DNA of 64,000 nucleotides, taken from the NCBI GenBank assembly GCA_963698765.1, contig CAVOSB010000026.1, positions 10,833-74,832 on the forward strand, written 5' to 3'. This stretch comes from an uncultured Chloroflexia bacterium. GTDB taxonomy: Bacteria; Chloroflexota; Anaerolineae; Anaerolineales; UBA4823. The notes under the pieces were generated by a model that saw only the letters and a program-made list of their open reading frames with translations, ran no database searches and was not told the origin of the DNA. Below are positions 35,904-64,000 of the stretch, in pieces. The position numbers were made by a program, and so were the translations under genes. Every line of letters begins with the position of its first letter. The stretch's first letter is position 1.

Positions 35904-35949
35904 CAGCGAAAAGTTCCTTATAGCTCAGGTATACAAGGATGAACTGGCT

Positions 35950-35984
35950 TAGAAGCTGAACTTTTGGAAAAAGTTCAGCTTCTA
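35950..35984. repeat. REP-like hairpin family A (variant)
   Basis: TAGAAGCTGAACTTTT-GGA-AAAAGTTCAGCTTCTA between convergent genes. Confidence 0.9.
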
Positions 35985-35994
35985 AGTTATTGGT

Positions 35995-36960
35995 TTACTT
36001 CACGGTCCAGGTGGTTTCCCACGAATCAAGTACTAAGAAATCGCCGGTTATCTGAAATTGCACAGTCCCGGGTATCACTGGCAGCGGCTCAGTACGATCC
36101 ACAGGCTGTCCAAGTGTGACCGCGGTCATGATTCCGCCGGGTTCCTGACCGCATATGGTTTCAAATTCGCTGACTGGCGCCTCAGGAATTATGTTCAGGC
36201 AGATGAGCTGTGCACCGTGCCACTCGGCATTCTTTCCCCTCAGCTCCAATTGAAGCGATTTCATTGCATCGGGCGGCGCTCCGCTTTCATTAATCGACAG
36301 GCTGGCAGATTGCAGCTGTACCAGCAAATCCCCAAACTTTACCTGCGCCTGGATAGGCCAGCTATCGCCCACAGAGTGCCCAACCAGGTCGATGACCAGG
36401 GGGTTATCAGCTGGCAAGCCGGTCAGGGAGTATTCCAGCTGCAGCGATAATTCCTCCACGCCGGCGTTTAGCGCAGCGAATTCTGCTTCTGCCAGGCCAG
36501 GCTGCAGTCTGGTGGTACTCTGCAATGGAATTTCGCCACCATCCTGGTCGAACAACCGCGCGTCGTATATCTCTCCATAAGGCCTTGGCCTGACCAAAAT
36601 GCCTGGATGAAAATAAAAGCCGACCTGTACACGGGTGTTAATTGCACTCCTGAACACATCAATTATATACGGCTCTAAAAGCGGGGACTCGCTGTCATCG
36701 ATCACGCCGGTAGGGACTTGCGTATGCGTTGGGACCTGGGTCAGGGTTCGCTGCGGAGAATTGGTGATAGCCCCGGTCTCGCCTGGAGTAGCCGTCAGCA
36801 GCCTGAGCATATGAGGCGTCGCAAATATGGCAGCAGGAAGAGACGGCAGGCCGACGGGTGAGATGGCAGGCTCAGGCAAAGCCCGTCCAGCCTGGCAGGC
36901 GGTGACTGCAACCAGGGCCAGTGCAGCTAAATGAAGTTGAATTCCGTAAAGTTTAATCAA
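35995..36960 (-). CDS. Hypothetical lipoprotein
   Basis: Hydrophobic leader ending VTAC, Thr/Pro linker; putative TTG start overlaps the upstream stop. Confidence 0.55.
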   Translation of the reverse strand: MIKLYGIQLHLAALALVAVTACQAGRALPEPAISPVGLPSLPAAIFATPHMLRLLTATPGETGAITNSPQRTLTQVPTHTQVPTGVIDDSESPLLEPYIIDVFRSAINTRVQVGFYFHPGILVRPRPYGEIYDARLFDQDGGEIPLQSTTRLQPGLAEAEFAALNAGVEELSLQLEYSLTGLPADNPLVIDLVGHSVGDSWPIQAQVKFGDLLVQLQSASLSINESGAPPDAMKSLQLELRGKNAEWHGAQLICLNIIPEAPVSEFETICGQEPGGIMTAVTLGQPVDRTEPLPVIPGTVQFQITGDFLVLDSWETTWTVK

Positions 36961-38826
36961 TTTGTGAGAGCAGCAGCCTCGCCAGCGACTGCCGCGACAG
37001 CAGGTCGGCGCTGACCATCCCCTGGACACAGCCCCCTTCCACCACCGGCATGGCTGAGATGCCGTGCCCTTCCAGCTTGCGGACCAGCTCGAGAATCGTA
37101 TCAGCCGGAGCGGCGGATACCACCTGGCTGCTCATGATCGTATCCAGGCAGTCTTGCAGCGCGGCTCCACGGGCCGCAGCCTGCGTGACATCCCAATCGG
37201 TGAGCACGCCCACCAGCTCTCCGCCCTGCGAGAGAACTGCCAGGATCGGGCTGCTGCTTTCCACCAACAGGCCGGCGGCTGCGCGCACGGTTTGGGTCAC
37301 GGAAATGGTCGGCATGTCTTCCATCAAATCCGCAGCGGTGCGGCCGGCTTCATGCCGGACAACGCGTTGGATGCTGATATGTTCGGCCGCTTCGCAGGGC
37401 AGCATATCGGCGTCGGATACCAGTAAATCGACCAGCTCGCGCATGTTGCGGCGGATCACCTGCTCGCAGGTAATTCTCCGCAGCCGTGCAGCGCCGCTGT
37501 GAAAGCTCATCGAGCTCGCTGGCATGCTCAGCCAGCCAGGCGTCCACCGCAGGGTGATCTCCAAGCAGATGGCCCGGGATGCGCAGGTGCGCTGGAGTGC
37601 GGATCAGGTGCTCCTGGGAAGCGTAGATGACTCCACCTGAATTCACCAGGTAATCTGTGGCAATCAGCACGCCGCGCTCCCGGTAAACCTGCCGCTCCAT
37701 GCGCTGGCGGGCGGTTTTACGCGCCCGGTCAGGCGAATAGGTGTTGGCGCCTTCTATGATCACCGCCCACTTTCCCATTTCCGCAACCGTGACAGCTGGC
37801 TGGCTGCCCTCGTCCACATCCAGGTAATTGGCTACCGGTGAAGCCGGAACCAGGCAGAAGCACGATTCTCGCAGCAGGTCGTTGGGCGCGCTGGAATACT
37901 TGGTGTGCGATACTCCCCACTGGCCCTGGAGCAGGTGCTCGATGAAGTAATCGCGCGTCACCAGGCCGCGCTCCTGCCACAGGCGGAACAGGCGCTCGAC
38001 TGGCAACCCCTGGGGATCAAAGAGGCTGCCCAATGCATCGCTGATGCCCAGCACCTGCGCGCCAGCTACCCGTTCGCACAGCATGCGTGAAGCGTGCGCG
38101 CCGACTGCCCCATAACCCTGGATGACGACCGTTATGCCGTCCGAGCCCGGCATTTCCAGGTTGGCAAACTGCGGCAAGACCTTCAGCCGTGGCATCTCCT
38201 CCAGCAAAGCCTGCAAGGCGATCACCAGGCCGGCGGCGGCCGCCCCCAGCTGGTCGATCTGAACTGCCGCCCATCTCACCGGGCTTGGAAAGGGCATTGT
38301 CCAGGCCGTTCTCGATGGCAATTGTCTTCATATCCGCGTCGTTAGTTCCCACATCCGGGCCGGGCAGGTAAACGGAATGATAGCGGTAAAGCAAGCGCGC
38401 AAACAGGCGCACCACTTCGGTGTGCTCGGCGGGTGTCAGGCTGCGTTCTGCCACGATGCCGGCTTTACCACCACCGTACGGCAGGTTGGCGGCGGCATTC
38501 TTGAGGGTCATGCCGCGCGCCAGGTTGTGAATCGTTTGCGGTGTGATGTCCGGCAGCATGCGGATGCCCCCCATCGCCGGCTGTCCCATGGCCAGGTTAT
38601 CGACGACCAGGTATCCGCCCACTTCCAGCAGAGAATTCTCGTCCCACATGCATACGACGCTGCGCGGTCCGAGATTATCGACCTCGATCCCCAGGCTGCG
38701 CAGGCTGTCGATATCCAGGGCTGAAAATTCAAAGTAGCAGCGCCCGGCGTCTTTAATGAGCCTCTTGTTCCACGCCAGCTCGGGAATGGCCTGTTGAAGG
38801 AAGGTGTGCATGCGTGTGGGGATCAT
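36953..38826 (-). CDS. Glu/Leu/Phe/Val dehydrogenase with C-terminal CBS pair (frameshifted twice)
   Basis: GGIRM, MTLKNAAANLPYGGGKAG, PGPDVGT, IQGYGAVG, EGAN, DYLVNSGGV, then VGVLTDWD and ISAMPVV CBS motifs. Confidence 0.85.
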
Positions 38827-38838
38827 GGCAACTCCAGT

Positions 38839-40110
38839 TTACTGTACACTGTGCAATTCACCCGCCGCTACAAACGCCAGACCCCCCTCCGTCAGCGCCC
38901 AGGCTGTGCGGTTGACGGAATCCCACTTGTCGATGAAGTTTTGTTCCAGGTTTTCCCAATCACCGGAGGCGATGACTTCGCTCTTGTCACGGAAATAATC
39001 CAGGATGTCGGAGGGATGCTGACGCTGCTCGTCGACTTCAGGATCGGCGCCTTCGTGCTTGGCGGAGATGTTGGCTACGTGGTCGGCGATCTCCACCAGC
39101 TCCTGCCGGCGGTTGTAGGGCTGGCGGACGATGCTCTTGTAGGTTTCGACGATGTGGTGCTCGAAGCGCACCACCTCTTCGAACCCCAGCTGCTTGCGAA
39201 ACTGGGCAGTCAATTCCATGGTCTCATTATTGATTGAATTGCTCCAATTGAATCCGATCAGCGGCGAGGTTCCATCGTCGCGCGAGAACAGCTTGGCACC
39301 CAACAGCGTCCATAAACCGGCATAGGGATTGTCGTTGCCCATGAAGACCGAGATCTTGAATTCGATATCGACACCCAGGCGGTAAAGCAGGTATCCGACC
39401 AGGACGGTGCCGGGGTTGATGTTCAGCACCTGGCGCACCCCGTAATTGGTGTAGTAATACAGGAATTCGTCGACCCATTTGAGAGGATAATGGTTGGGCT
39501 GCCCGATGCCGCCAAAATAGCCGGTGATGGTAGCCGGACCACCCAGGTGGACATTCGAGCCGTCGGTGCCCTTGGTGTCGAGGGTATCCACGTAGCTGGC
39601 GCCGATGATCTGCATGGCAGCGGCGATGGCAGGCAGGTCGCCGTCGGCTTCCTGTTCCTTCATCTTGCGGACCTTGATGAAGCGCCCCGGCATCAGCCTC
39701 CCTTCTGCGATCGAGCGTTTGGCGATCTCGATGATCCAGGGGAAATACTGGCAGGCGCTGATCTCCAGGGTGACGGCGAAATCATCGGCGAAGCGCATGG
39801 AGTCAGCCCTGTCTCCCATTACTTTCCGGCGGTAGGCGGGGATGGTGATGAACGCCTGGCGGTCGCGCTGCTGCTCGAGCCAGCGCAAATCCTGCAGGTA
39901 TTCCGGGTGGGCAGCCCTGACTTTTTCCAGCAGGTTGGGGAGCTGGCGGGCCTGCTCAGCCTTATGGTTGATCTCTTCAGGTGTGCCGTATTTTCCAACC
40001 ACTTCCAGGAGGTTGTTGATGACCTGCATGTCCGGATTGAGGAGAACGGCGTTGATGTCATCCAGGCGGTCGTAAGATATTTTCAGCAGCTGGCGTAGAT
40101 TCTCGTCCAT
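38839..40110 (-). CDS. Hypothetical 423-aa soluble protein
   Basis: Intact ORF with AAAGGAG RBS; no family motif recognised. Confidence 0.85.
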   Translation of the reverse strand: MDENLRQLLKISYDRLDDINAVLLNPDMQVINNLLEVVGKYGTPEEINHKAEQARQLPNLLEKVRAAHPEYLQDLRWLEQQRDRQAFITIPAYRRKVMGDRADSMRFADDFAVTLEISACQYFPWIIEIAKRSIAEGRLMPGRFIKVRKMKEQEADGDLPAIAAAMQIIGASYVDTLDTKGTDGSNVHLGGPATITGYFGGIGQPNHYPLKWVDEFLYYYTNYGVRQVLNINPGTVLVGYLLYRLGVDIEFKISVFMGNDNPYAGLWTLLGAKLFSRDDGTSPLIGFNWSNSINNETMELTAQFRKQLGFEEVVRFEHHIVETYKSIVRQPYNRRQELVEIADHVANISAKHEGADPEVDEQRQHPSDILDYFRDKSEVIASGDWENLEQNFIDKWDSVNRTAWALTEGGLAFVAAGELHSVQ

Positions 40111-40138
40111 TCATAAGCTCCTTTTTAGTTAAGAGAAC

Positions 40139-40315
40139 TGTACACGGATTACACGGATTGAACGGATTTACACGGATTCTTACTAATATTTTCAAGAAAA
40201 TGTCGAGAAGATAGTTTTGCACCAACCAAGCAATTTACGGAGCCAGGACTTTTTGTCAAAAAATTTATCCTGTTCTATCTGTTATTATCCGTTTGATCAG
40301 TTAAATCCGTGTACA
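40139..40315. repeat. MITE-like element with tandem ACACGGATT units in inverted arms
   Basis: TGTACACGGATT (x4 units) ... degenerate ATCCGT units ... AATCCGTGTACA; related arm at ~41236-41268. Confidence 0.7.
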
Positions 40316-40359
40316 AATTCTTTCTTCTCCGTTTAATACTTCAAATCAGTGTACCGGTT

Positions 40360-41220
40360 TTATTTCAGCAGGTCGAGCAGCTCGTCATATTCTTCGTCTT
40401 TCATGCCAAACCAGTTTTCCGGCTGCGGGAATGTCCCAGAAGTGACTTCCTGGACGTAGCCCTGCAGGCCGTTCAGGATCACTTCACCGGCATTTCCGAA
40501 CACTTTTGCCATGCGCGGCTTGAAGCGTGGGTACAGGCCAAACATGTCGTGATAGATGAGCAGCTGCCCGTGGGCATTTGGGCCTGATCCCAGGCTCATG
40601 ATCAGGCAGTCTACTGCGCGCTCGGTGATCAGCTTGCAGACGCGGTCGGGCACCATCTCGAACAGGATCATGCAGGCCCCGGCGTTTTCCAGCGACTTGG
40701 CTGAGTCGATAATTTTCTTGGCCTGTGCAGCGCCTTTTCCCTGCACTCGGAAACCACCCAGGGCGCTCAGGCTCTGCGGGGTCAACCCCAGGTGGCCAAT
40801 GGCCGGGATGCCGGAATGCACGATGCCTTCGATGCGGTCGGCCATCTCTGCGCCGCCTTCCAGCTTGATGGCATCGCAGGCTGCTTCTGCCATGAAGCGC
40901 CCGGCATTGCGGATAGCTGACTCCACACTGGGCTGGTAGCTCATGTAAGGCATATCGCCCACCAGGAACACGTTGGGGGCGCCGCGGCGCACGGCCTGGC
41001 TGTGGCGGATCATGTCTTCCATCGTGACGGGTAAGGTGGTCTCATAACCCAGCATAGTCATTCCAAGGCTGTCGCCCACCAGGATCATATCGATACCCGC
41101 CTGCTCCTGCAGGTAGGCGGTGGGGTAGTCGTAGCAGGTCAGCCAGGTGATGGGGATGCCGTCGGCGGCTTTCTTGAATAAGGTGGGGAGAGTGACTTTT
41201 TTGCGCGGTTCGCCAGACAT
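40360..41220 (-). CDS. panB: 3-methyl-2-oxobutanoate hydroxymethyltransferase
   Basis: LTCYDY, LVGDSLGM, GDMPYMSY, KLEGG, GHLGLTPQ, GQLLIYHD. Confidence 0.95.
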   Translation of the reverse strand: MSGEPRKKVTLPTLFKKAADGIPITWLTCYDYPTAYLQEQAGIDMILVGDSLGMTMLGYETTLPVTMEDMIRHSQAVRRGAPNVFLVGDMPYMSYQPSVESAIRNAGRFMAEAACDAIKLEGGAEMADRIEGIVHSGIPAIGHLGLTPQSLSALGGFRVQGKGAAQAKKIIDSAKSLENAGACMILFEMVPDRVCKLITERAVDCLIMSLGSGPNAHGQLLIYHDMFGLYPRFKPRMAKVFGNAGEVILNGLQGYVQEVTSGTFPQPENWFGMKDEEYDELLDLLK

Positions 41221-41607: not shown

Positions 41608-42651
41608 ATGCTGCTGAGCGATTATCAACCGAAAAGCCAGCTTGTCACCGGGGTGACCCAGGTAAAAAGACCGCGTTTTTCGGCCATCGACGCGCACAAC
41701 CACCTTGGAGAGCTGTTCGGTGGGGGTTGGGACCGCAAGCCGCTCTCCCAGCTGCTGGACCTTTTAGATGAGGCAGGCGTGGTCGAGTACGTTGATTTAG
41801 ATGGAGGCTGGGGGGAAGAGGTCTTACACGAGCACCTTGATTATTTCAAATCCCGGGCACCCGAAAGGTTTCACATCTTCGGCGGGGTGGATTGGACCCA
41901 GTGGAGAATTTTGGGGGAGAAGTTTCCTGAATGGGCGGCAGACAGGCTCAGGATTCAACAGCAGCAAGGCGCCGAGGGATTGAAAATCTGGAAGGATTTT
42001 GGATTACTGGTCCAGGACCAGGAGGATAAACTGGTGAGCGTAGATGACCCACGGCTCATACAGCTGTGGGAAACGGCAGGAGAACTCAACCTTCCCGTTA
42101 TCATCCATGTCGCCGACCCGGTGGCATTCTTCAAACCACAGGATCAATTCAACGAACGCCTGGAGGAGCTCGAAGCGCATCCCGATTGGGCATTTGTCAG
42201 CCCGCCTTTCCCTTCATTCAACAGCATCCTGGAGGGACTAGCCAGCCTGGTGGCGCAGCATCAAAACACGATTTTTATCGGCGCACACGTGGGCTGCTAT
42301 GCGGAAAACCTGGCATGGGTGAGCTCGCTGCTCTAGCGCTGCCCAAATTTTTACGTGGATATCAGCGCCCGGATAGCTGAATTGGGACGGCAGCCCTATT
42401 CTGCCCGAAAATTCTTCTTGCAGCACGCCGACCGCATCCTGTTTGGCTCCGACATGGGACCGGACCTGGAAGCATACCGCATCATGTATCGTTTCCTGGA
42501 AACAGAAGATGAATACTTCAGCTACGACTCGCAGGAAAGACCTCGCCAGGGGAGGTGGAATATTTACGGCATTCACCTGTCCGAGGATGTATTGGAAAAG
42601 GTTTATTTTAAAAACGCAAAGAATATTCTGCAAAAGGAGAAGAAGAAATGA
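41608..42651 (+). CDS. Amidohydrolase family protein (in-frame TAG at 42334-42336)
   Basis: IDAHNH, IHVADP, GAHVG, RILFGSD; both ORF halves are in the same frame. Confidence 0.8.
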
Positions 42652-43996
42652 AGAAAAAGCTGGTGATCATAATTTTATTGGCCCTGATGATCAGCGCATG
42701 CGGCGGAGGCCAAACCGCTGAACCGGTCAGCACCGACATAGCGGAAATCGCAGGCCCGACGGCGGCTGAGGAAGTACCCCCGGCTGAGAAGGTCCAGATC
42801 CGCATGTGGACGCACCAGAACGATTCTTTCAACGCCGGCTACCAGGCGCTGGCAGAGGAGTACACGCTGGCGCACCCAAACGTGGAAATCCTGTTCGAGA
42901 CCTTCGACTATGATACCTACATCCAGAACTCTCCAGACGGCTTTGCCAGCCAAGACCGAAGCGGATATCCTGCAGATGTTCGGTTCATGGGTGTGTTCGT
43001 ATGCCGAAGGCGGAAACCTGGCGGAGATGCCCGCCGCCTTGATCACGCTGGATGACGCCAAAACAAAAATCCTGGGAGCACCTGTAGGCGGCTATATCTG
43101 CCAGGATAAACTGTACGGTATCCCTCAGGAATACAACATCGAATACGGTGCGGTGCTGCTGAATACCAGGATCGCCGAAGAAGTGGGAGCGACCAATTAC
43201 CTGGACGGCTGGGACGAATGGGACGAAGTCATCGAGGATGGAAAGAAAATGGCAATCATCCAGGACGGCGTGATGACGCGGGCTGGATTGAACTTCACCG
43301 GTTCGGACGGGATTGCGACCATGTTCCACTCCCTGTACCTGCAGTACGGCGGCCAGTATCTTAATGATGGGGTCTACACAGTCAACACGCCGGAAGGAGT
43401 TATGACCCTGGAGCTCATGAAAAGCCTGGTTGATGCAGGCCTGGTGGATCCAGTGCTGTTTACCGACGAGGAAAACTGGGTGGGTGACTCATTTTTTGCC
43501 GAGACCAGTGCGATGGGGCTGGTAGGTCCGTGGGCCATCCCGGAATACAGCGGAGATTACCCGGATGTGGCTGCGGTGACCATTTACCAGCCGCTGCCCA
43601 GCGTCGGCCTCCGATCCGGTCTTTGCGGCTGCATCCGGCTGGGGGCTGACAGTATCGAACAACAGCAAGGTACAGGAGGCAGCCTGGGATTTCGTAAAAT
43701 ACGTTACCCTGGAAGCGGACAATGCCGTGGCATTCAACCTGGCCTCCGGAACCCTGCCTGCCCTAAAGGAAAATATAAGCGGTACGAATGCAGACTCGCT
43801 GGTGGCTGAATTCCCGTATTTCAAGCCTTTCCTGGGCATCCTGGAATTTGGACAGTACGAGGGGCAGTTCCCCGACCGTGATTTCGCCTGGTACGAGGTC
43901 ACCTACCCGACCGTTTTGAATTTCCTGCAAGGCAATGCCAGCGTGGAAGAGACCCTGTCATCGATGGAAAGCGAAGTGCAGGGATCATTCAAGTAG
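42648..43996 (+). CDS. Sugar ABC transporter substrate-binding lipoprotein (frameshifted twice)
   Basis: Lipobox ISAC, HPNV.I, KLYGIP, AM..VGPW, AAWDFVKY. Confidence 0.85.
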
Positions 43997-44013
43997 AATT
44001 GGACTGAGGATAT

Positions 44014-44046
44014 GACCCTAAGGGTTTGAAGAACACCCTTAGGGTC
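44014..44046. repeat. Family B-like hairpin (GACCCTAAGGGT-N9-ACCCTTAGGGTC)
   Basis: 12-bp inverted repeat between the substrate-binding and permease genes. Confidence 0.8.
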
Positions 44047-44061
44047 TTTCCGGGGACGCCA

Positions 44062-45054
44062 ATGATAAAACTGGCAAGACCATCCTGGAGGAGTTTTTTC
44101 CGCGGCCGCGATTCAGCTGAAAAGAAATTCCTGGCAGGCACGATTTCTCCCCTGGTGTTGTACCTGGCATTCTGGACTCTGTTCCCCATGATCTGGGGTG
44201 TAGCCCTGGCATTCTTCGATTACAGCCCGCGCCGGATGGGCGGGTTCCTGGGATTCGGAGGGGATAATCCCTTCATCGGGGTCCAGCATTTCCAGAATAT
44301 GACCGATTTCTCAACCACGGCTGCTTTAGAAGTGCAGCAGTTCCACACTGCAGTCAAAATTACACTGATGTTCGCCGCGCTGGTTGTGCCGCTGAATTTA
44401 CTGCTCACGCTGCCATTAGCCTTTTTGATCGAATCGGTCCACGGTCGTGCCAAGGGCATCTTCCGCACCATATTCTTCCTGCCAGTGCTGGCGCCGTCGG
44501 TGGGCGTGGCAATCATGTGGGGATTCATATTCCATCCGCAGCGCGGCCTGCTGAATGCCATTATCGGCGAAATTAGCGGGAAGATGACCGGAATCGCCTG
44601 GCTGAGGGACCCCAGCCTGGAGCTGTGGGGCATACCAGCGGCATTGTTGGCGGTCGTGATAGCCTACCTGTGGCAGGACCTGGGCTACAACCTGGTCATT
44701 TTTATCGCTGCCCTGCAGGGCATCCCGCAAAGCATCAAGGATGCTGCGGTAATGGATGGCGCCAACTGGCTGCAAATGTTCGTCCGCATCATCATCCCGC
44801 TGTTGATGCCGACCATCCTGCTGGCAGCAGTCCTGACCATGATCTCGGCCTTCCAGGTCTTTGATATTATCCAGGTGATGACCGAGGGCGGACCCAATGA
44901 CCAGACCCAGGTATTGCTATTAAACATCTATAACTACGCATTCCGTTTCCAGAAGATGGGTTGGGCGGCAGCAGTCTCGATCGTGATGTTCCTGATGATT
45001 CTGAGTATCTCCCTGGTTCAGGCCCGCCTGTTGCGCAGCGAGTGGGAGTATTGA
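44062..45054 (+). CDS. Carbohydrate ABC transporter permease
   Basis: FRTIFFLP, EAA-like DAAVMDGA, FQVFD...TEGGP. Confidence 0.93.
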   Translation: MIKLARPSWRSFFRGRDSAEKKFLAGTISPLVLYLAFWTLFPMIWGVALAFFDYSPRRMGGFLGFGGDNPFIGVQHFQNMTDFSTTAALEVQQFHTAVKITLMFAALVVPLNLLLTLPLAFLIESVHGRAKGIFRTIFFLPVLAPSVGVAIMWGFIFHPQRGLLNAIIGEISGKMTGIAWLRDPSLELWGIPAALLAVVIAYLWQDLGYNLVIFIAALQGIPQSIKDAAVMDGANWLQMFVRIIIPLLMPTILLAAVLTMISAFQVFDIIQVMTEGGPNDQTQVLLLNIYNYAFRFQKMGWAAAVSIVMFLMILSISLVQARLLRSEWEY

Positions 45055-45056
45055 AC

Positions 45057-45908
45057 ATGGCTGCCACTGCCGTTCCCAACAAACCCCGCAGGCGCCGCAT
45101 CAACCTGGCCTATTTCATCCTCGTCCCGCTCAGCCTGGTGGCCCTACTGCCCTTCGTGTGGATGATACTCAGCTCTTTCAAGACCCTGGCAGAAGTTCGC
45201 CAGATTCCACCGACCTTTTTTCCCCAGGAATTCACACTCGAGAATTACCAGCGGGTGCTCGACGATCCTGACCTGCCCCTGGCAACCTTCTACCGCAACT
45301 CGGCCATCATCGCACTGGCGAACGTAGTGCAGGTGCTGTTCACCAGCTCCCTGTTCGGCTATATCTTTGCCAAATATGAATTCAAAGGTAAAAAGTTCCT
45401 GTTCTGGTTCGTACTGTCTTTGATGATGATCCCGCACCAGATGACAATGATCCCCGGCTACCTGATCCTGGCAAAACTCGGCCTGATCAATAATTTGCTC
45501 GGTTTGATCATCCCAGCGGCGATCGACGCCTTCGGGATATTCCTCTTTCGCCAGTTCGCACTTTCGATACCGGATGAGCTGATCGACGCAGCACGCGTGG
45601 ATGGGGCTGGCGAATTCAGCATTTACTTCCGGATCGTCCTGCCCCAGCTGGGTCCGGCCCTGGCCACCTTTGGGATGCTGACCTTCATGTTCAATTGGAA
45701 TTCGTACCTGTGGCCGTTAATCGTCCTGACCGAGAAGAACGTCCGCACGCTGCCGATCATCCTGACCTGGTTCAGCAACCAGATGGTCGATAAGACCAAC
45801 CTGACCATGGCAGCCTCAGTGCTGGTAATCCTGCCTGTATTGTTTGTTTTCTTGCTCGTCCAGCGCTGGATCGTCCAGGGGATTACTCTCAGTGGATTGA
45901 AAGGATAA
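45057..45908 (+). CDS. Carbohydrate ABC transporter permease
   Basis: [21 protein letters not shown]. Confidence 0.93.
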
Positions 45909-45912
45909 CACT

Positions 45913-47251
45913 ATGACCAAGATCACTTTTATCGGCGCAGGCAGCCTGGGTTTCACTGCCGAGCTGGCCCGGGATATCCTGACCTTCCCCGGCTGCAGGA
46001 GCGACCATCGCCCTGATGGACATCAACGCCGAGCGCCTGGGATACGCCGAAAAGGGGGTCAGCAAGCTGGTGCAGGCGGTGAAGGTGCCTGCCAGGGTTG
46101 CAGCGCCACCCTCGACCGGGTGGAGGCGCTCAAAGGCGCGGATGTCGTTCTGACTACCATCCTGGCAGGCAGCACCGAGGTCTGGCGGCACGATATCGAA
46201 ATCCCCAAGAAATACGGCGTGGATATCAATGTGGGCGACACGCGCGGCCCGAGCGGCATCTTCCGCTTCCTGCGCACGATCAACCCGATGATGGACATCG
46301 TCCGCGACATGGAACACTACTGCCCGCAGGCGGTCCTGCTGAATTACACCAACCCGATGGCCATGCTGTGTGTCAGCCCTCCAGACGCCAGACCTTCATC
46401 CCTGTCACGGGACTGTGCCATTCGGTGCAGGGCACAGCCATGATGCTGGCGGATTGGATCGGCGCGCCGTTCGAGGAGATCGATTACCTGTGCGCCGGCA
46501 TCAACCACCAGGCATGGTATCTTACATTTCAACTGGAAGGGGCAGGACGCCTATCCACTGATCCACAAGGCGATCACCGGGCGCCCCGAGATCTACAATG
46601 CGGAGCAGGTGCGCAACGAGATGTACCTGGCGCTGGGATATTACGTGACCGAATCGAGCGGGCACAACTCCGAGTACAACTGGTGGTTCCGCAAGCGCCC
46701 CGACCTGATCGAGAAATACTGCACGCACGGCACCGGCTGGAACCCGGGCGAGTACGCCTATATCCTGAAAGAATACCAGCACACCGAAGCCACCTGGAAG
46801 GACCAGGTGAGGTCGAGCTGCCAGGCCGCTAACCGGTCAGGATCTGACTGCAGCGCGGGCACGAGTACGCCGCCTACATCATCAATGCGCTGCAGGGCGG
46901 CGAGCCGTTCAAGTTTAATGGCAACGTGCCCAACACCCAGCTGATCACCAACCTGCCTGAAGGCGCATGCGTGGAAGTGCCGGTGCTGGTGGACAGGGCA
47001 GGCTTCCACCCCCTGCACGTCGGTGCGCTGCCGCCCGAATGCGCCCTGCTGACCCAGCTCTCGAGCGGGATCGAAGAGATGGCGATCACAGGCTTCACTG
47101 GCAGGCGACCCGACCATGGTCTACCGCGCCATCTGCCACGACCCGCTGACCGCCGCGGTGCTATCCCTGGCCGAGATCCGCCAGATGACGAACGAGCTTT
47201 TTGACGTAGCACAAGGATTACCTGCCGCAGTTCAAGGCTCAAAAGACATAG
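45913..47251 (+). CDS. melA: GH4 NAD+-dependent alpha-galactosidase (MelA-like), several frameshifts
   Basis: [50 protein letters not shown]. Confidence 0.8.
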
Positions 47252-53272: not shown

Positions 53273-54755
53273 TCAATTCAAGACGAATGCGGGTTCGGGG
53301 ATCACCGGCTGCTTTTCAATCAGCCCGGCTTCGGTGACGATGCGCGGCACGATCTCTTCCCAGCCCACCGCCATCAGGTGGATGCCGTTGACGCCCTGCT
53401 TGCTCTTGCACCGCCTCGATCAGCTCCAGGGCGATCTGCACGCCTTCTTCTTCGGCTCCGTCGCCGGCGGCTTCCATGCGCTTCAGCAGCTTCTCCGGGA
53501 TGATCACGCCCGGCACTTCGTTGTTCATGTACTGCGCCATCTTGAGGCTCTTGAGCGGGGTGATGCCCGACCAGGATATAGACCTTATCCAGGATATTGC
53601 GCTTGGCCAGCTCGTTCAGCCAGATCTCCAGCCCGTCGGGGTCGAAGACCAGGTTGGTCTGGAAGAACTGCGCTCCGGCGTTGACCTTCTTGTGCTCGCG
53701 GATGGCCTGGAAGCGCGGCTCGGAGGCATAGGGCGAGCGGCCGCGCCCAGGAAATAACTTGGGCGGGAATTTCATCGAGCGCCCGTCCAGGTAGCTGCCT
53801 TCGTCGCGCATCCGGCGCAGGATCCACAGCATCTGGACCGAGTCGATGTCCAACATGTCCATGCGGCCGCGCGGGCTCGGGAGCCATCTTCATGCTGTCG
53901 CCGGACAGGCACAGGATGTTGCGCACGCCCAGGGCGTTGGCGCCCAGCACCTCCGCCTGCAGGCCGGTGCGGGTGCGGTCGCGGGCGGCGATCTGCATCA
54001 CCGGCTCGGCGCCGTGCTGGATGCGCAAGCGTGCTGCACGCCCAGCTGGACATGCGCGGCGTGGCCGAGGGCGAGTCGGTGAAGTTGATCGCCGCCACAT
54101 AGGGCTTGACCAGCTCGATGTTTTCGATCCAGCTTCTTGGTGGCGATGGTCATCGGCGGGGCGACTTCGGCGGTGACCACAAACTCGCCGGCTTTCAGGC
54201 GGCGCTCCAGCTCGGAGACCGGCTCGCTGTAAGCGGCGGGTGGTATTCGGCGTCGCCCTGCCACCAGTCCGGCTGGCGCACCGGGCGGAAGACCGAATCC
54301 CAGGTGCTGTCGCGCTTGGCGGCGTCGCTGGAGACCATGCCCTTGCGACAAATTCACCGATGCCCACCTTGCTGCACCTGGTGAACGACATCGCCCCAGG
54401 TCTCGCCGCCGACCTTGTCCCAGTCCAGCGGCGGCAGCACTTCCAGCAGCTTCTCTTCGCGCCCCATCTTGAAGGCGCGGTCGTAGATCTTGTACCAGAT
54501 GCACGGGCGGGTCTCGTCCACATAGCAGTGCTCTGCGGTGGAGCCGCCGCACGGGCCGTTGCGCAGCGCCCTTGGGGCACTCCATCGGGCAGATGAAGGC
54601 CGTCTCCTGCAGCAGGCAGTTGCCGCACATCCGGCAGCCGAACAGCGGCCCTTTGACCACTTCTCCACGGTCTCCAGCAGGCGGACGCCAAAGCGGCTTC
54701 TTTCTGAAGGGCAAGTAGGCGGCTGCCAGCGTCTTCCAGGGGTAAAGCCAGGCAT
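53273..54755 (-). CDS. metF: Methylene-THF reductase, MetV-like Cys-rich domain fused to MetF (several frameshifts)
   Basis: GCRMCGNCLLQETAFICPMECPK..RNGPCGG...C...CIW followed by EFVVTAEVAPP, AINFTDSP, ARDR.R.GLQ, GAQFFQTN, GIHLMAVG. Confidence 0.8.
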
Positions 54756-54894
54756 AGATCAATCTCCTTATGGAGATCGGACTACCAATCAAGGTTTAAA
54801 GTCGCGCAATTTCGCTGCTACCAGGCAATTCGAATCCTGCTGTATAGCACGCCTGGCAGCCTTATTAAAATATCACCTGATTTGGACAGTATAC

Positions 54895-54908
54895 GTGACA
54901 TTTGTCAT
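54895..54908. promoter_or_regulatory. GTGA-N6-TCAT palindrome (CRP/FNR- or Rex-like site)
   Basis: GTGACATTTGTCAT upstream of metVF; 12/14 identical to the 12894 site. Confidence 0.4.
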
Positions 54909-55082
54909 AATTCGGCAGGTGACAGACATCTGGCCCCAAAAGCTGACGTTGGTGCTCGATAACCGTGGATATGGCAGTCCGAAGATGCCCAACTGTGGAT
55001 AATCCATTACCCCGGACTGAATTCATCTGGACTTCGGGATCCTTCTACAGAATATGCTTAGACGGCCTATCCGAATAGACGC

Positions 55083-56008
55083 TTACTGCTCCAGATACGA
55101 ATCGGCGTAAATCACCTTGTTCAGCAGGATCTGCACGGTCTTCCAGATCGCGACCTGCTCGGGGTCGCTGATAGTCCACGTCGTCGATCGACGGCTCTTC
55201 CATAGCGGCGATGCGGTCGGCGATCTTCAGATACAGCGGCCCGACCGGCGTGCTGTCGTCGCGCTTCTCGATGATGCGGATCGACTCTTATGCTGCTCGT
55301 CCAGCGGGTTGGCGATCATCATCTGCAGGCCGACGCCCATCAGCATGGCCAGTAGATGCGGTTGATCAGCGGGCGGTTCTGCGTCCGGGACGGCGTTGGA
55401 GACATTCGACAGGCCGACCGAGATCGCCGGCGGCGGGTCCCAGGCAAACTGCAGCGTGCGCACGGCTTCGATCAGCTGCGGGCAGTATTCCTGGCAGCCG
55501 GAAACGGTCAGCACCAGCGGGTCGATGATCAGGTCGCTGCATCGGGAAGTCGATCTCCAGCATGCGCGGGATCAGCTTTTCGACGGCGATGTTGACGCGC
55601 TCGTCGGCGGCGACCGGGATGCCGGAGGCGCCCATGGTCAGGGCGATCAGGCGGGCATTGTACTGCTTGGCCAGCAGCGGCACTTTCTCCAGCCGCTCGG
55701 GCTCGGCGGAGGTGGAGTTGATGATCGGCTGGGCCTTGGTGATCTTCTTCAGCCCGGCTTCGATGCCCACCAGGTTGGTGCTGTCGAAGCTGAGCGGCAC
55801 ATCGACCACCGCCTTCGACCGTCTCCACCATCCAGGGGAAGACTACCTCGCCGTCTTTCTTGCGCGGGCCCAGGTTCAGGTCCAGCGCCTGGGCGCCGGC
55901 TTCGACCTGCTTGACCGCCAGGTCCTGGAAGAAATTGGCGTCTTTGTTGGTCAGGGCTTCTTTGACTTTTTCGGAAATGATGTGAATATTTTCGCCAATG
56001 ATGTACAT
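55083..56008 (-). CDS. acsE: Methyl-THF:corrinoid iron-sulfur protein methyltransferase (frameshifted)
   Basis: MYIIGENI, ALDLNLGP, PLSFDSTN, IINSTSA, IDPLVL, GLSNVSN; acs cluster context. Confidence 0.85.
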
Positions 56009-56082
56009 GGTTTTTCCATCCTTTCTTTTTCGATATCTCACAGATTCGAGTCCCTGGTCAAGAGCTGCAGGTCTAGCTGGTC

Positions 56083-58062
56083 TCAACTTGCCGAGGCCGC
56101 TTCCACGCTGGGAAAGCGGCTCAGGTCGGTATGCGGCAGGAACAGCGCCGACATAAACGCTTCGTAAAATGAGTTATCGGCCGACAGCTCGATATAGGTC
56201 ATGCGCGGAGGCGATTTCTTGGATGCGCTGGCGCGGCCCGGCGGTCCAGCAGGGCATAATAGGCGCCGCGGACCGAGGTGTTGCCCAGGAACTGAAAGCG
56301 CTCCCAGGGCATATCGGGCAGCAGGCCGATCTGCACGGCCTTTTCGACGTTGATGTACTTGCCAAACGAGCCGCCGATCAGCATCTGCTCGATCATCTCC
56401 AGCGGCACGCCGACCGACTCCGGCCAGCACGGTGAAACCGGCGTAGATGGCGGCTTTGGCGCGCAGCAGGTTGTCGATATCGACGTGGGTGATGACGATA
56501 TCCTGGCCGTGTGCGGTCTCAGCTGCCCAGGCGACCACATATTCCAGGCCGTGCTCGCCCTCGCGGATGCGCGGCGTGTCCAGGTGAGTGTTCAGGTTGC
56601 CGCCTTTATCGACCACGCCGGTCATGAACATCTCGGCCAGCAGCGAGATCAGCCGCTGCCGCAGAGTGCCGCGCGGCTTGCCCGCCCCCGATCACCCGGT
56701 AGGTCGGCTCGCTAGGTACTGCCGTTGATCCAGACTTCTTCGATGGCGCCGCGCGTGGCGCGCATCCCGCTGCTGCACACCGGCGCCTTCGAAGGCCGGG
56801 CCGGCCGAGCAGGCGCAGGTCACCAGCCATTCACTGCGAGCCCAGCACGATCTCGCCGTTGGTGCCGACATCCATGAACAGGGTGATCTGGTTGGTGTCG
56901 TCCATGCCCGAGGACAGCACCCCGGCGGTGATATCCGAGCCGACGTAGCTGGCGACGCCGGGCAGGCAGTCGACCATGCCTACCGGGTGGATCTTCAAGC
57001 CGACTCCTGGCTGCGGTGAGCAGCGGGATATGGTTGATGGCGGTGACGAAGGGCGCCAGGCGGATGGTGGCCGCCGGGATGCCCAGCAGCAGGTGGATCA
57101 TGGTGCTGTTGCCGGCGATGGTCGCCTTGACGATCTCGCTGCGGCTTGACCTTCGATCAGTGCTCGCCAAGCCTACGTCTGGCGCGCTTGCAGGCCGTCT
57201 CGATCAGGCTGTTGATGGTGTCCAGCACCAGTTCGCGCAGCTCCTGCCCGCCGCCGTTCTTGCCGGCGTAGACGATGCGCGAGATCACATCCTCGCCGCG
57301 GGCGATCTGGCCGTTGTATTCGGAGACCTGGGCCTTCACCTGCCCGCTGATCAGATCGACCAGCCAGACGGTGACGGTGGTGGTGCCGATGTCGATCGCC
57401 AGCTCCCCACAGCGGTTCGTCGTCCGGTACCTGCCCGGGCAGCAGATCGATCAGCCATTCCTCGATGGCGACTTGCCGTCGGGCGAGCCTCGCTGCAGCT
57501 GTCCAGCGATGGCGGTCACCTGCCAGTCTGCCATCGCGCAGCACCTCGCCCAGCTTGCGCAGCAGTCGGCAGACGGAGACTTTGACAGCCTGGTCGAAGC
57601 CGGCCTTGCTGGCGCAGGCCGGTCAGCAGGCGGCTCAGATCGTCGGTCTGGTCATCCATGCTGGGCAGGACTGAGAGACAGCCGCACCCGGCGGATGGTC
57701 TGGTCCAGCTCGGAGTTGTAGCCCGCCGGGACGCGTCACTTCGGCGCACGTCAGGTCGGTGGTCAGCCGGCGTTCGATCTTCTCCTGCGGCGGGACGTGG
57801 ACCTGACAATCGCCTTCGACCACCGTCTGGCAGGCCAGGGCGTAAGCCGGCTCGATATCCTCCGCTGGAAAGCCGCAGCGTGCTGCGGCGGCGCACGGCG
57901 CCTTCCAGGACCTGCACCGCACACCGCCCGCAGCGCCCCTGCCCTCCGCAAGGTTGCGCGATTTCGATCCCCGCCAGGCGCGCCGCTTCGCTGAGCAGCG
58001 TGCCGGTAGGCACCTGGACAGCTTCAGAGGACTCGATCGAACTTGACCTGATGAGATTTCAT
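56083..58062 (-). CDS. acsV: Reductive activator of corrinoid proteins (2Fe-2S + ASKHA/DUF4445), frameshifted
   Basis: CGGQGRCGRC...LACQ, AIDIGTTT, GEDVISRI, MDVGTNGE, LLRAKAAIYAG, IELS. Confidence 0.85.
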
Positions 58063-58078
58063 GTAGGCGTCAATCGAC

Positions 58079-58111
58079 AGACTTCCGAAGTCTCCAGGAC
58101 TTCGGAAGTCT
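58079..58111. repeat. Family B-like hairpin (AGACTTCCGAAGTC-N5-GACTTCGGAAGTCT)
   Basis: 14-bp inverted repeat between acsC and acsV. Confidence 0.85.
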
Positions 58112-58115
58112 CTGT

Positions 58116-59439
58116 TTATAAGCGCCTGTTTCATGAACTTCGGAAGATCGACCGCTTCGCGCGGGCCGACGCGGATTTCCCAGCCGGGCAGCTCTTCTTC
58201 CAGCTCGCCGGAAAGCACCGCCACGTGCCCGGGGAGCACCACCCGCTTGCGGCTGACTTTGTCGGCGAGGTTGAAGCTCTTGACGGCCTTGGCGATGCGC
58301 TCGGCGTCGAACTTGCCGGCCGCCCAGGCGGTGAGCACGCTCATGCCTTCGGCGTCGCACACCACCAGCCAGGCCGGCAGGCCGGAGCCTTCGACTTCGT
58401 TGGCCACGCTGAAGTAGGTGATGCTGAAGTTGGTGGTGACCAGCACCGGGCTGTCGGGCTTGGGGTTGTTGATCTCGTACATGCCGGGCTGCACCTGGAT
58501 CGGTTTCTGCGGGTCGGTGTAGATGTTCTGGCGCAGCACCAGCAGCGGATAGACCAGGCTCGGGGGCAGAAGTTGTCGAGCACGATGAAGCCGGCATACT
58601 TGGCGATCGCCTGCGCGGCCGCCTCGGGGTGTCTGCGGGAAGGCGATCAACGGGAAGCCCAGGGCGCGGAAGTTCTTCTTGAGCGCCAGGCGGCGAATCT
58701 GGGTGGTCAGGGCCAGCCAATCGCCCAGGCTGTCAGCTGGCGGGATCCAGCACCAGGTCTTCCACGCCTTTGGCCTTGATCTTCTCGGTCAGCTCGGCCA
58801 GCTCTTCCAGGTTGCCGGCGCTACGCCAGGGCAGCCTTGGCGCCTTTGGCCAGCTCGGCCATGGCCTCCCAGTTGTCGGCGTCGGCGCCATGCAGCAAGG
58901 CGTTTCGCCTGGCAGGGCTGCCAGGCCGGCGGCCATCACGGCCGGATCGCTTGCCGACCAGGATCAGCGGCCGCTTGGTGGCTGCGCGCACGGCTTTGAC
59001 CGCTGCGGCGAAACTTGCCGGCGTCGCCGCTGGCAGCTTCGACTGCGAAGCCGTCCAGGGTCAGCTCGATGCCGACGTAGTTGGCTGTAAGCGTCGGCGT
59101 CGGCTACGCTGCTTTTGAGCTGCCTCCGGCGAGCAGGTCATCGCTGAATTTGACGAACAGACCCGGCTTGTTGTAGAAGGTCTTCTCGTGGCGGAACAGC
59201 ACCACTTCGTTGCCGGCCTTCACCTCGTTGCCGTCCGCTTTGAGCGTCACCAGGCGGATGGGCGGGGCAGCCGATTCGGCCAGCTGGGCTTTGGATTCTT
59301 CGCTGACATACGGGCAGGCGGAAAGCTCGACCTGCTTGGCGGCCAGCTTCATGGCAAAGGCCAGGCAGGTGGGGAAACCGCATTCTTTACAGTTGGTCTG
59401 CGGAAGAAGTTTATAGATTTGAATTCCGGAAAGAGCCAT
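58116..59439 (-). CDS. acsC: Corrinoid iron-sulfur protein large (gamma) subunit, frameshifted
   Basis: LPQTNCKECGFPTCLAFA...CP, LRQNIYTDPQKP, TTNFSITYF, SVLTAWAAGKF, VGPREA. Confidence 0.93.
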
Positions 59440-59503
59440 ATTCACTCGTTTCTCCAATGATCTGATCGGTCCTAGTCAATCCGTACACGCGTTCAGGTGC
59501 AGT

Positions 59504-60471
59504 CTACAGTTCGGCTACCGCCATCAGCTCGTCGATGGCAGCCTTGACCCGCCGGACGCTCTCGGGATGGCGCAGGACGACGATATCGGCGCCGGATTCG
59601 AGCAGGGCGACGGCGGTCAGCGCTTCCCAGTTGATCGCCCGCTTCGCCAGTCGCCCCAGGCTTCCGGCACGCCTTCGCCGACCTTGGATTCCTTGGTCTT
59701 CCAGGCTTCGAAGCCGGGGGTGACCAGCATCGGGAGCTGGGTCATGGCGTCGCCCTGCAGGGCGGCCAGGCGCAGGCGCTCCATCACCGAGTAGCCATAC
59801 TCGATGCCGTAGCCCAGGGCGCCGGTGGTCGGGTCCATGAGGATGCGATCGAGCGGCAGGCCCATATCGCTGATCAGGATGTTGAGCTGCTTGGCCAGGT
59901 TGACATCCATCGGCGTGCGGGCGTTGACCAGGTGCCCGTTGGCCATGGCGGTGGCGACGATGGTGCGGTAGTTCTTGTCTTCGCAGATGCCCAGCACCAG
60001 GCGCTCGCCTTTGGTGGCTTCGGCCACCGCCACCAGCAGCTTGTTATCCACCTCGGCCTGGCCGGGGCCAAAGACGATCAGCGGCAGGCCGCTGGCTGCC
60101 AGCACGCTTTGACCGTGGCAACCGCTGCCTCCGGGGTGGTGGGATTGCCGTCCTGCGTCGGTCAGGCTAAGCGTCAGCTGGATCAGGTCGGCGCCGGCGG
60201 CTTCGGCAGCCTTGGCCCATCGGCCGGGTCATCGATCACCTCGCCCCAGGTCTTCAGCAGCAGCGGCGACCAGTCCTCCGGGCGGCGGTCGCGGATTTCA
60301 CAGCAACGACCGGGCGGTTGGGCGATGGCGCCTTCGAAGTGCATGAAGGGCAGGCAGTCTCGCCGCCCACGGTGACCGTCTGGTGCGCGTGCCGCCCTCG
60401 GCGGCCGTGGCGCCGATGGTCACCTCGCGCACGCTGCCAGGCCATTTGTCTTTTGGAATTTCAATAGGCAT
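59504..60471 (-). CDS. acsD: Corrinoid iron-sulfur protein small (delta) subunit, frameshifted
   Basis: VGGE..LPF.HFEG, DVNLAKQLN, MDPTTGALGYGIEY.YSVMERLRLAALQGD, LRHP. Confidence 0.92.
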
Positions 60472-60578
60472 ATGTTTCACTCCTGTTAGATTAGATGCTT
60501 TTTTGATTATTGGCTCAGACGATGGCTGTTATCTGGGAACAGATCGTTCTGAGTGCTCAGTGATACATCACAAGCTTA

Positions 60579-61087
60579 TTATTCCTGCCTTTGCGCTGCG
60601 TGCGGCTGGCGCTCGCGGCGCTGGATAAAGGTCTCCAGCGGCGATTGGCGCGCTGCGCTGATGCCCAGGTCGCGCAGCTCATCGTCATCCCGGGCGGCCA
60701 GGTGGCGCAGCAGGTGCTGGTAGGAGATCAGCGCCGCCGGGTACTCGATCCCGCCGGCATGATGCATCAGGAACAGCACCCGCACCCGCTGGTCCTGCAT
60801 CATCTGCGCGGCAGCTGTCAGCGGGATATCCGGCGGCACCTGGGCACATCGTCGCGCATGACATGCTTCGGCATTCAGCCCGACGCGGTTGGCCCGTGCG
60901 CATAGGCGTGCACCAGCTCCTCCTGGCTGACCACCCCCAGGGCGTGCCCTTCCTCGCGGATCCAGCACGACCACCGCTTCCAGCTCTTTTTCAGCAACAG
61001 CGCGCAAGATCCGACCACGGCGTATCCGGGCGCACAGGTCGCCACACCGACGGTCATCAGGTCGCGCACCAGTTCGGGAGATTGCAT
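60579..61087 (-). CDS. CBS domain pair protein (frameshifted)
   Basis: VRDLMTVGVATC, LGVVSQEEL, PPDIPLTAAAQMM, ALISYQHLL. Confidence 0.75.
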
Positions 61088-61203
61088 TCGTACGGTTGTT
61101 CGGATTATTGTTCAGTTTACAGCATCAGTGTACATCGCCATCAGAACACGGCAGCACTGGTTACCCTTGCCTGCACCTGATACTGATCACAGACTTCTGT
61201 ACT

Positions 61204-63499: not shown

Positions 63500-63520
63500 A
63501 TGGATCTCTCCATACTCTGC

Positions 63521-64000
63521 TCAGTCAGCTGCCACGCCGTACAGAGCTTCACGGCGGCGTTCCAGTGACCGGCAGCTTCTTCCAGTCGAGCATGCGCGCG
63601 ATCGCCGCTGCGCCCAAACTTGTTGGGTCGTAAACCGGCAAGCCCAGGGCGGCGCGTTTCTTATCGATGTGGTCCAGCGTGCGTCTGGATCATCTCGTCC
63701 GGATCGGGGATGAATTCCATCTTGCCGCCGTAGAGCTTCTCCCAGCCTTCGCTGATGTAGTTCAGGACGATGTCGCTGTCGGCCACCCGGTCGGGCATGC
63801 CGCTGATCGGGGATGAGCCGCCGAAGATGACATAAGCGCCGGAAGCCACGCAGTAGGTGCCGATGGCCAGGGCTTTCTCGCTCATCCATTCCGGCGCCAG
63901 GCCGACCGCCGGGATCTGGTCGATATCATCGCCCAGGCCGCCTTCTTCCACCATCTGGGTCAGCACGGTCAGGATGCGGGTGTTATCCACGCAGGAGCCC
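63521..64000 (-). CDS. cooS: Anaerobic Ni-CO dehydrogenase catalytic subunit, 3' part
   Basis: GSCVDNTRI, APEWMSEKALAIGTYCVASG, HIDKKRAALG; directly upstream of acsB. Confidence 0.93.

Follow-up and report, generated by a model that had tools for sequence, protein, structure and literature searches.

In the 64,000-nucleotide window from an uncultured Chloroflexia bacterium (contig CAVOSB010000026.1) we analysed three adjoining genes of the minus strand. They code for a paralog of ketopantoate hydroxymethyltransferase (KPHMT, or PanB; the paralog is called PanB2 below), an orphan enzyme of 423 aa with a predicted barrel fold, and a Glu/Leu/Phe/Val-family (ELFV) dehydrogenase fused to a pair of CBS domains. 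We found that the linkage of the three genes is far beyond chance and that the unit is not a CoA pathway. With a probability of about 0.5, the trio would convert methionine via 4-methylthio-2-oxobutanoate (KMTB) and 4-hydroxy-2-oxobutanoate (HOB) to pyruvate and methylene-tetrahydrofolate (methylene-THF). The contig comes from an Anaerolineales-type genome (G000) of 3.85 Mb, 74.7% complete, and the closest loci were those of Anaerolineae.

In the direction of transcription, panB2 (41220-40360, 286 aa, with its ATG preceded by AGGAG) is followed by an AT-rich gap of 249 nt (40111..40359) and then by the orphan gene (40110-38839). The start of the dehydrogenase gene (38826-36953; 623 aa with two extra bases discounted) lies 12 nt further on, and the CBS pair takes up approximately 36953..37340 of it. 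The initial annotation had described the common direction of the three genes, the 12-nt spacing, the absence of panC, panD and panE from the open reading frames (ORFs) beside panB, and an intact 423-aa ORF with the motifs GYFGGIGQPN, FEHHI and SAKHEG; all of this was confirmed.

The distribution of the genes was followed in 301 genomes of the phylum and in 201 genomes of the order. The 423-aa gene was found in 24 of the 301 genomes. PanB2 of the window type (identity at least 68%, range 68-80%) was present in 19 genomes, every one of which carried the 423-aa gene, and in none of the 277 non-carriers; a further panB match was seen in 17 of these 19. As for the five carriers that had no PanB2, a different PanB paralog adjoined the orphan gene in two, one had unlinked copies of panB, and two had no panB. 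In the order sample the dehydrogenase-CBS gene was detected in 16 genomes, and in all 15 of them other than the source genome the barrel gene was located directly upstream. PanB2 adjoined the dehydrogenase gene in 8 of the 15 and was present elsewhere in the genome in 5 of 5 tested among the remaining seven. The dehydrogenase is thus bound to the orphan gene more than to panB, and this arrangement makes it most likely the supplier of the barrel's substrate.

For the neighbour counts we used the top 80 out of at least 568 GTDB loci, many of which end at contig ends. The most frequent ones were PanB2 (59) and the dehydrogenase (30), followed by Fhs (11), MeTr, TPL/tryptophanase and Lrp (8 each); an MtaA-type methyltransferase was seen in 3 loci, DapA::Fae and Kbl in 2 each, and hom in none. 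Further from the window, the 423-aa family was present in 1 of 201 genomes of a cyanobacterial phylum sample, in 4 of 201 acidobacterial genomes and in 1 of 72,556 plasmid records, and no member was found on viral contigs.

PanB2 belongs to the PanB/KPHMT family. It scored above the cut-offs of PF02548 and TIGR00222, and its metal and catalytic residues are in place, with equivalents of D45, S46, D84, K112, E114, H136 and E181. On the other hand, it is unlinked to pan genes, only 48% identical to the panE/panC-linked copy of the same genome, and altered at five pocket positions (V179L, G201S, I202L, I212L and V214I in E. coli numbering). We observed the signature L-S-(L/I)-x-I at positions 179/201/202/212/214 in 19 of 19 PanB2-type or barrel-locus PanBs from three deep lineages, compared to V-G-I-V-V in 6 of 6 panE/panC-linked PanBs; the comparison covered 25 hand-chosen rows, and the branch of the gut locus L106 is long. 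The window protein, with L, S, L, L and I, does not have the pantothenate-type pocket. Leucine occurs at 179 in the PanB of N. meningitidis as well, and site 179 alone is not diagnostic.

According to published work, I202, I212 and V214 shape the pocket of E. coli PanB (PMC7610986), and Ala or Gly at 202, 212 and 214 broadens the substrate scope of this enzyme (PMC7610986, PMC7611260). Since smaller residues at the same sites widen the scope and the side chains of PanB2 are larger, the pocket suggests a smaller keto acid, pyruvate. We propose from these residues that PanB2 would be an HOB:THF hydroxymethyltransferase yielding pyruvate and methylene-THF. The initial annotation had offered a link between valine and the C1 pool. 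A single functional unit tying hydroxymethyl transfer on a keto acid to the folate C1 pool agrees with Fhs in 11 and MeTr in 8 of the 80 related loci and with acs and MeTr some 15 kb away in the window; valine or 2-oxoisovalerate as the substrate is disfavoured because of the narrowed pocket. A PanB2-type gene (68%) was also seen in G061 (L126:9621-13670), in a cluster of a sugar ABC transporter and an enolase-family dehydratase near thrB-thrC; in this genome it and the barrel gene are on separate contigs.

The orphan protein had been put forward as a stand-in for a missing pantothenate step, such as the ligase or the supply of beta-alanine. An alternative pantoate/CoA pathway, with the barrel replacing PanC, PanD or PanE, would fit the fact that a true PanB-family gene adjoins the barrel gene in 59 of the 80 loci, and also two gaps: panC was not found in 4 of the 19 PanB2 genomes, and panD (PF02261) was not found in any of the five carrier genomes tested (G000, G043, G253, G266 and G274), four of which have panC. 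Still, we consider this pathway exceedingly unlikely. The source genome has panB-panE-panC-coaX on contig C38, 17 of the 24 carriers have panC, and the 423-aa gene occurs in two genomes (G002 and G015) that gave no match to either panB or panC. No panE or panC match was seen in any barrel locus, the 423-aa protein had no match at E<=0.1 to the Pfam and NCBIfam models of PanC, PanD and PanE, and a distant subfamily of the barrel, described below, had no panB neighbour. Of the suggestion about beta-alanine the missing panD matches are left; no neighbour pointed to beta-alanine.

The dehydrogenase-CBS gene is spread over three frames in the assembly, with one surplus base near 38265 and another near 37469. 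Neither of them occurs in a short-read contig that another study obtained and that matches 36900-39364 at about 98% identity; a second run gave a contig that is free of the one within its coverage. Frameshifts were present in 11 of 32 test genes of the G000 assembly. The near-identical independent contigs and the commonness of frameshifts indicate that both frame breaks are most likely assembly errors. In 27 related loci we found one uninterrupted ORF of 618-635 aa (27 of 30 loci were aligned, three cut or broken ones being omitted). Therefore, the fusion reported in the initial annotation is a genuine single protein of 623 aa, though not a single ORF in this assembly. Other frameshifted genes of the genome are those of an amidohydrolase, an ABC binding protein, a GH4-like protein, acs and MeTr in the window (41608-47200 and 53500-64000) and of Fhs and tryptophanase elsewhere; with so many genes affected, split ORFs in this genome are likely to be assembly errors.

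The ELFV domains of the fusion (PF02812 and PF00208) have the catalytic Lys, Lys and Asp and the Rossmann motif. The protein is about 30-35% identical to any solved member of the superfamily, falls far below all NCBIfam cut-offs, and differs from the known enzymes by an N-terminal extension of about 60 aa as well as by the C-terminal CBS pair. At the three pocket sites where the glutamate dehydrogenase of T. maritima has Lys, Ala and Ser, the aligned sequences show Met (25 of 27, the other two having Ile), Gly (all 27) and Ala (all 27). The Lys and Ser that bind the gamma-carboxylate in glutamate dehydrogenases, which we take to be Lys89 and Ser380, are thus replaced by Met/Ile and Ala in all 27 sequences, and the protein does not qualify as a glutamate dehydrogenase. 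The pocket is non-polar; the score against the tryptophan dehydrogenase ScyB was 59 bits with a cut-off of 600, and leucine, tryptophan and phenylalanine dehydrogenases ranked below glutamate dehydrogenases. Wang et al. 2001 reportedly obtained a methionine/norleucine dehydrogenase from a glutamate dehydrogenase with the triple change K89L/A163G/S380A, and the window pocket resembles such engineered variants. Another paper cites K89L, A163L and S367A as the changes that turn glutamate dehydrogenase into a methionine/norleucine/norvaline enzyme (PMC5708825). From this likeness we propose that the window enzyme may be a methionine dehydrogenase.

The closest PDB proteins to the CBS pair included MJ0100 in second place (E 1.5e-13) and PH1780 in third; a multi-CBS protein scored higher. 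The motif G-h-h-T-x-W-D is shared with MJ0100, and its Trp was present in 24 of the 27 sequences. Both MJ0100 and PH1780 respond to S-adenosylmethionine (SAM) or methylthioadenosine (MTA), according to PMC13381585. The pair is therefore a candidate SAM/MTA sensor, and control by energy charge, assumed in the initial annotation, is not the first guess.

The 423-aa protein belongs to no named family as far as its comparisons go. No match was found in Pfam or NCBIfam at E<=0.1 or among PDB sequences, by single sequence or by profile, and one match in the ESM Atlas (0.76) was below the usable level. The family itself is large, with at least 8000 homologue clusters at 90% identity and one main cluster at 50% identity. 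As proposed with the initial annotation, the protein was modelled with AlphaFold and searched with Foldseek. The confident model (pLDDT 93) has a helical N-terminal arm and a (beta/alpha)8, or TIM, barrel at about residues 108-415; Foldseek and VIA-align matches were generic barrels, such as CutC, glutamate mutase E, ThiC, GH18/GH20, Kce and class II aldolase. For class II fructose-bisphosphate/tagatose aldolases the best Foldseek match had E 4e-4, TM 0.34 and 11% identity, with only H318 kept across the subfamilies. The Schiff-base barrels DapA/NAL and transaldolase gave Z of about 10.7-11, tied with other barrels.

A weak match in one genome (G602) led to the distant subfamily, which has at least 1216 proteins. 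It aligned with the 423-aa family at full length (hhalign probability 98.1, E 1e-13, 369 columns); its model folds alike, and its fold matches were no better. Both subfamilies have S118, E152, N230, K252, S254, N288, N291, H318, K351 and E353 in common. Among these, K252 (strand 5) and K351 (strand 8) are invariant lysines, and no clear metal triad was seen. Models of Cys/Met pyridoxal-phosphate (PLP) enzymes, covering the PLP gamma-lyases methionine gamma-lyase (MGL) and canavanine gamma-lyase as well as MetB/MetY, did not match the barrel protein, which may work like PLP gamma-lyases without being one of them. A B12 or radical-SAM role was considered and rejected, with no recurring cobalamin-binding partner in the neighbour clusters and no invariant cysteine. 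Judging by the model and the setting of the gene, we propose that the barrel may act as a 4-methylthio-2-oxobutanoate lyase/hydratase.

Partners of the barrel gene in other loci narrow down its place in metabolism. In three loci that have no PanB2 (L120 of G002, L075 and L104) DapA-aldolase::Fae fusions adjoin the barrel gene. For example, G002, where no panB was found, has two such fusions next to it. They would combine aldol cleavage with formaldehyde capture on a pterin, the same net chemistry as that proposed for PanB2. The tandem fusions (L120:13618-17096, L075, L104) are from Chloroflexota, and the pterin would be either tetrahydromethanopterin or THF. In the cyanobacterial loci L085 and L093, tdh-kbl is positioned beside the barrel gene and PanB2 is absent. 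The distant subfamily was present in 14 of 81 genomes; its neighbours in the 14 genomes were an aminotransferase (14), homoserine dehydrogenase, hom (11), AOR (8), aldehyde dehydrogenase (2), thrC with a proposed homoserine kinase (1) and threonine aldolase (1). Since the partners PanB2, DapA::Fae, Tdh/Kbl and hom/aminotransferase/AOR all lead out of HOB or homoserine, we regard it as highly probable that they represent alternative exits from an HOB/homoserine hub, either to pyruvate and a C1 unit or to homoserine and then aspartate or threonine.

Several loci add detail to this picture. In the gut locus L106 (41% identity) the PanB paralog likewise shows the PanB2 type of pocket. The operon of this locus (L106:4323-16412) also codes for a Liv-type ABC transporter, the distant barrel homologue, an IlvD-family dehydratase, a metallo-beta-lactamase-fold hydrolase, DhaKL and IclR; its substrate is perhaps a tetronate or a methylthio-sugar acid. 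In G570 (L118:9736-16182) the barrel gene is followed by genes of an iron alcohol dehydrogenase, AOR and a nickel-pincer isomerase, and an exit by way of 2,4-dihydroxybutanoate to malate is possible there; LarA-family racemases are located near L138 and L149. A divergent Cys/Met PLP enzyme of 468 aa, below every NCBIfam cut-off, was seen in distant-subfamily operons with a short-chain dehydrogenase/reductase, a cupin and an aldehyde dehydrogenase (L145:5409-6815 and L146:10121-11527). With the Asd profile (PF02774), 3 of the 14 distant-subfamily genomes gave no match and 11 gave one weak match each, which may be Asd or ArgC. Three acidobacterial loci combine an MtaA-type methyltransferase, a corrinoid protein, MeTr and Fhs, a set that is possibly a sink for methanethiol. 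In a Polaromonas locus, an Lrp-divergent methionine-gamma-lyase-like gene lies at a distance of 3 kb.

The proposed route would begin with the deamination of methionine to KMTB by the dehydrogenase-CBS protein, and the barrel would swap the methylthio group of KMTB for water, giving HOB and methanethiol. Because the thiol leaving group is beta to the ketone of KMTB, its elimination would leave 2-oxo-3-butenoate, which on hydration would give HOB, perhaps through a Schiff base on lysine K252 or K351. PanB2 would then split HOB into pyruvate and methylene-THF, and the latter could be used by Fhs (formate and ATP) or by the branch of acetyl-CoA synthase, while SAM or MTA would tune the dehydrogenase through the CBS pair. 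Among the protein amino acids none but methionine has a leaving group at C4 of such a skeleton, to our knowledge, and the chance that methionine is the source feeding the barrel is about even. Our confidence decreases from PanB2 acting on HOB/pyruvate to the barrel making HOB, the catabolic direction, methanethiol as the leaving group, elimination and hydration by way of a Schiff base and, finally, tuning by SAM or MTA. A widespread PLP-free methionine fermentation, made up of a SAM-tuned methionine dehydrogenase, a new TIM-barrel KMTB family and an HOB-cleaving PanB paralog, is a tentative generalisation, with slightly less than an even chance of being right.

A number of observations weigh against the methionine route. 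Counts among kin are not independent. The dehydrogenase is accessory: no match to it was seen in 25 other genomes with the barrel gene, and 30 of the 80 nearest loci have it; aminotransferases may substitute for it in carriers that do not have it. Gly at the A163 site is typical of phenylalanine dehydrogenases too, and with TPL/tryptophanase in 8 of the 80 loci and a TyrR-like regulator among the neighbours an aromatic substrate of the dehydrogenase is possible. The best fold matches of the barrel (Z 11.8-12.6 at 7-8% identity) were tied with unrelated barrels and assigned no reaction. An exclusion profile for MGL gave no match above the cut-off in 80 genomes, and matches near the cut-off occurred both with and without the barrel family. 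Sugar-acid dehydratases pair with the barrel in L106, L122 and L124, which methionine leaves unexplained. In the source genome, at 75% completeness, there was no MtaA-type match. Nor was there a match to hom, lysC, thrB or a MetY-like gene, a gap in favour of a biosynthetic reading; the barrel gene is flanked by lysC-asd in G012 and by an asd-family gene in G061, which suits biosynthesis equally well. Finally, at standard state the equilibrium between HOB and the thioether probably lies on the side of the thioether, and breakdown would require a low level of methanethiol.

The same hub could be fed by another 4-substituted C4 compound, with the dehydrogenase acting on this compound or on homoserine. 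Candidates are the keto acid of homocysteine or cystathionine, homoserine lactone, 2,4-diaminobutanoate and a tetronate derivative. All the downstream evidence fits such a source equally well, the sugar-acid dehydratases, metallo-beta-lactamase-fold hydrolase and DhaKL of L106 would find a place, and aspartate could be the compound on which the distant subfamily's aminotransferase acts in the last step. The non-polar pocket of the dehydrogenase, the nearness of the CBS pair to SAM/MTA binders, the singular C4 leaving group of methionine and the amino-acid fermentation genes among the neighbours argue for methionine, and we judge another source to be unlikely. We give still less credence to the reverse direction, in which HOB would be made from pyruvate and methylene-THF, the barrel would add methanethiol or H2S, and amination by the dehydrogenase would turn the product into methionine or homocysteine, subject to feedback by SAM via the CBS pair. 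The genes for homoserine and methionine synthesis not matched in the source genome, lysC-asd adjoining the barrel gene in G012, the thermodynamics given above and the nature of MJ0100, a SAM-regulated homocysteine-forming enzyme, all speak for it. However, the company of aldehyde dehydrogenase/AOR, the Fae fusions, Fhs, Tdh/Kbl, TPL and tryptophanase is a catabolic one, and hom was present in 5 of 5 better-assembled relatives with a complete trio. Besides, an asd-family gene stands beside a Cys/Met PLP enzyme, putatively MetY, elsewhere in G019, G193 and G702, and an Rfam scan of 8 loci found no riboswitch, SAM riboswitches included.

Two further readings change the chemistry itself. PanB2 might hydroxymethylate 2-oxobutanoate, 2-oxoisovalerate or an arylpyruvate that the dehydrogenase provides, and the barrel would dehydrate or cleave the product. 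ELFV dehydrogenases make such keto acids, KPHMT accepts many keto acids according to PMC7611260, and TPL, tryptophanase, Vor and a TyrR-like regulator are found as neighbours. We nevertheless hold this branched-chain or aromatic route to be quite improbable: the side chains at 179 and 214 are larger, the opposite of variants for bulky substrates, the cluster has no enone reductase, and the homoserine dehydrogenase beside the distant subfamily requires an unbranched C4 skeleton. Very improbable as well is the barrel being itself a pyruvate:formaldehyde (HOB) aldolase for detoxification or assimilation of formaldehyde. Its two invariant lysines, the aldolases and transaldolases among the fold matches, and the conversion of HOB to homoserine in the synthetic homoserine cycle (PMC11259041) are in agreement with it, but such an enzyme would duplicate PanB2 or the two adjoining aldolase-Fae fusions and would leave the dehydrogenase without a role.

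The methionine route can be set beside known systems. The canavanine gamma-lyase pathway of Pseudomonas canavaninivorans/Rhizobiales (PMC9533460) also eliminates the C4 substituent and re-adds water, at the level of the amino acid, and then feeds homoserine dehydrogenase and, towards aspartate, aspartate semialdehyde or aldehyde dehydrogenase; the distant subfamily is accompanied by the same lower genes. Its enzyme, though, is a PLP protein of fold type I that acts on the amino acid and leaves methionine unconverted, while the window enzyme is a predicted TIM barrel with a proposed 2-oxo-acid substrate and PanB2 as the exit. Methanethiol is freed from methionine by MGL (TIGR01328), with 2-oxobutanoate as the product (PMC9533460), and from its keto acid after transamination by the fungal KMBA demethiolase STR3 (PMC4763297). 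Both are PLP enzymes; the proposed route would keep an oxygen on C4 (HOB) and yield pyruvate and a C1 unit. The synthetic homoserine cycle (PMC11259041), with an HOB aldolase (RhmA) and an HOB aminotransferase, has the same interconversion of pyruvate plus C1, HOB and homoserine. It is engineered, assimilatory and built of promiscuous enzymes with free formaldehyde, whereas the trio would consist of dedicated natural enzymes that use a folate-bound C1 unit and likely run in reverse. A literature search, confined to open-access papers, gave no description of the barrel family, of an HOB-specific PanB or of a methionine-HOB route.

If the proposal is true, a reaction would be assigned to a large unnamed family and to its distant subfamily, and many genes annotated as panB would be corrected, not being pantothenate genes. 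Anaerobes would have a further means, independent of methionine gamma-lyase, of breaking down methionine and releasing methanethiol, and digesters and anoxic sediments a source of methanethiol that has gone uncounted. The pathway as a whole would be a natural counterpart of the synthetic homoserine cycle, running in reverse. Designers of synthetic C1 assimilation have had only promiscuous aldolases to use and are looking for dedicated HOB enzymes; with PanB2, methylene-THF and pyruvate would be joined directly.

In the vicinity of the trio, the gap between panB2 and the orphan gene contains a single sigma70-like site (40259-40232, 10/12). Six such sites were found compared to 3.0 +/- 1.8 in shuffles, the gap site alone is not significant, and the promoter/terminator scan of the locus gave a result close to chance. 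Genes of acetyl-CoA synthase, the corrinoid Fe-S protein, MeTr and a MetF-like protein occupy 53500-64000 (minus strand) of the window, about 15 kb from the trio; MeTr shares a locus with the trio in L025, L026, L047, L055 and L091. The dehydrogenase gene is followed by a lipoprotein-like ORF without a family match (35995-36950, minus strand), behind which a hairpin of 20 pairs (35945-35989) may terminate the transcript.

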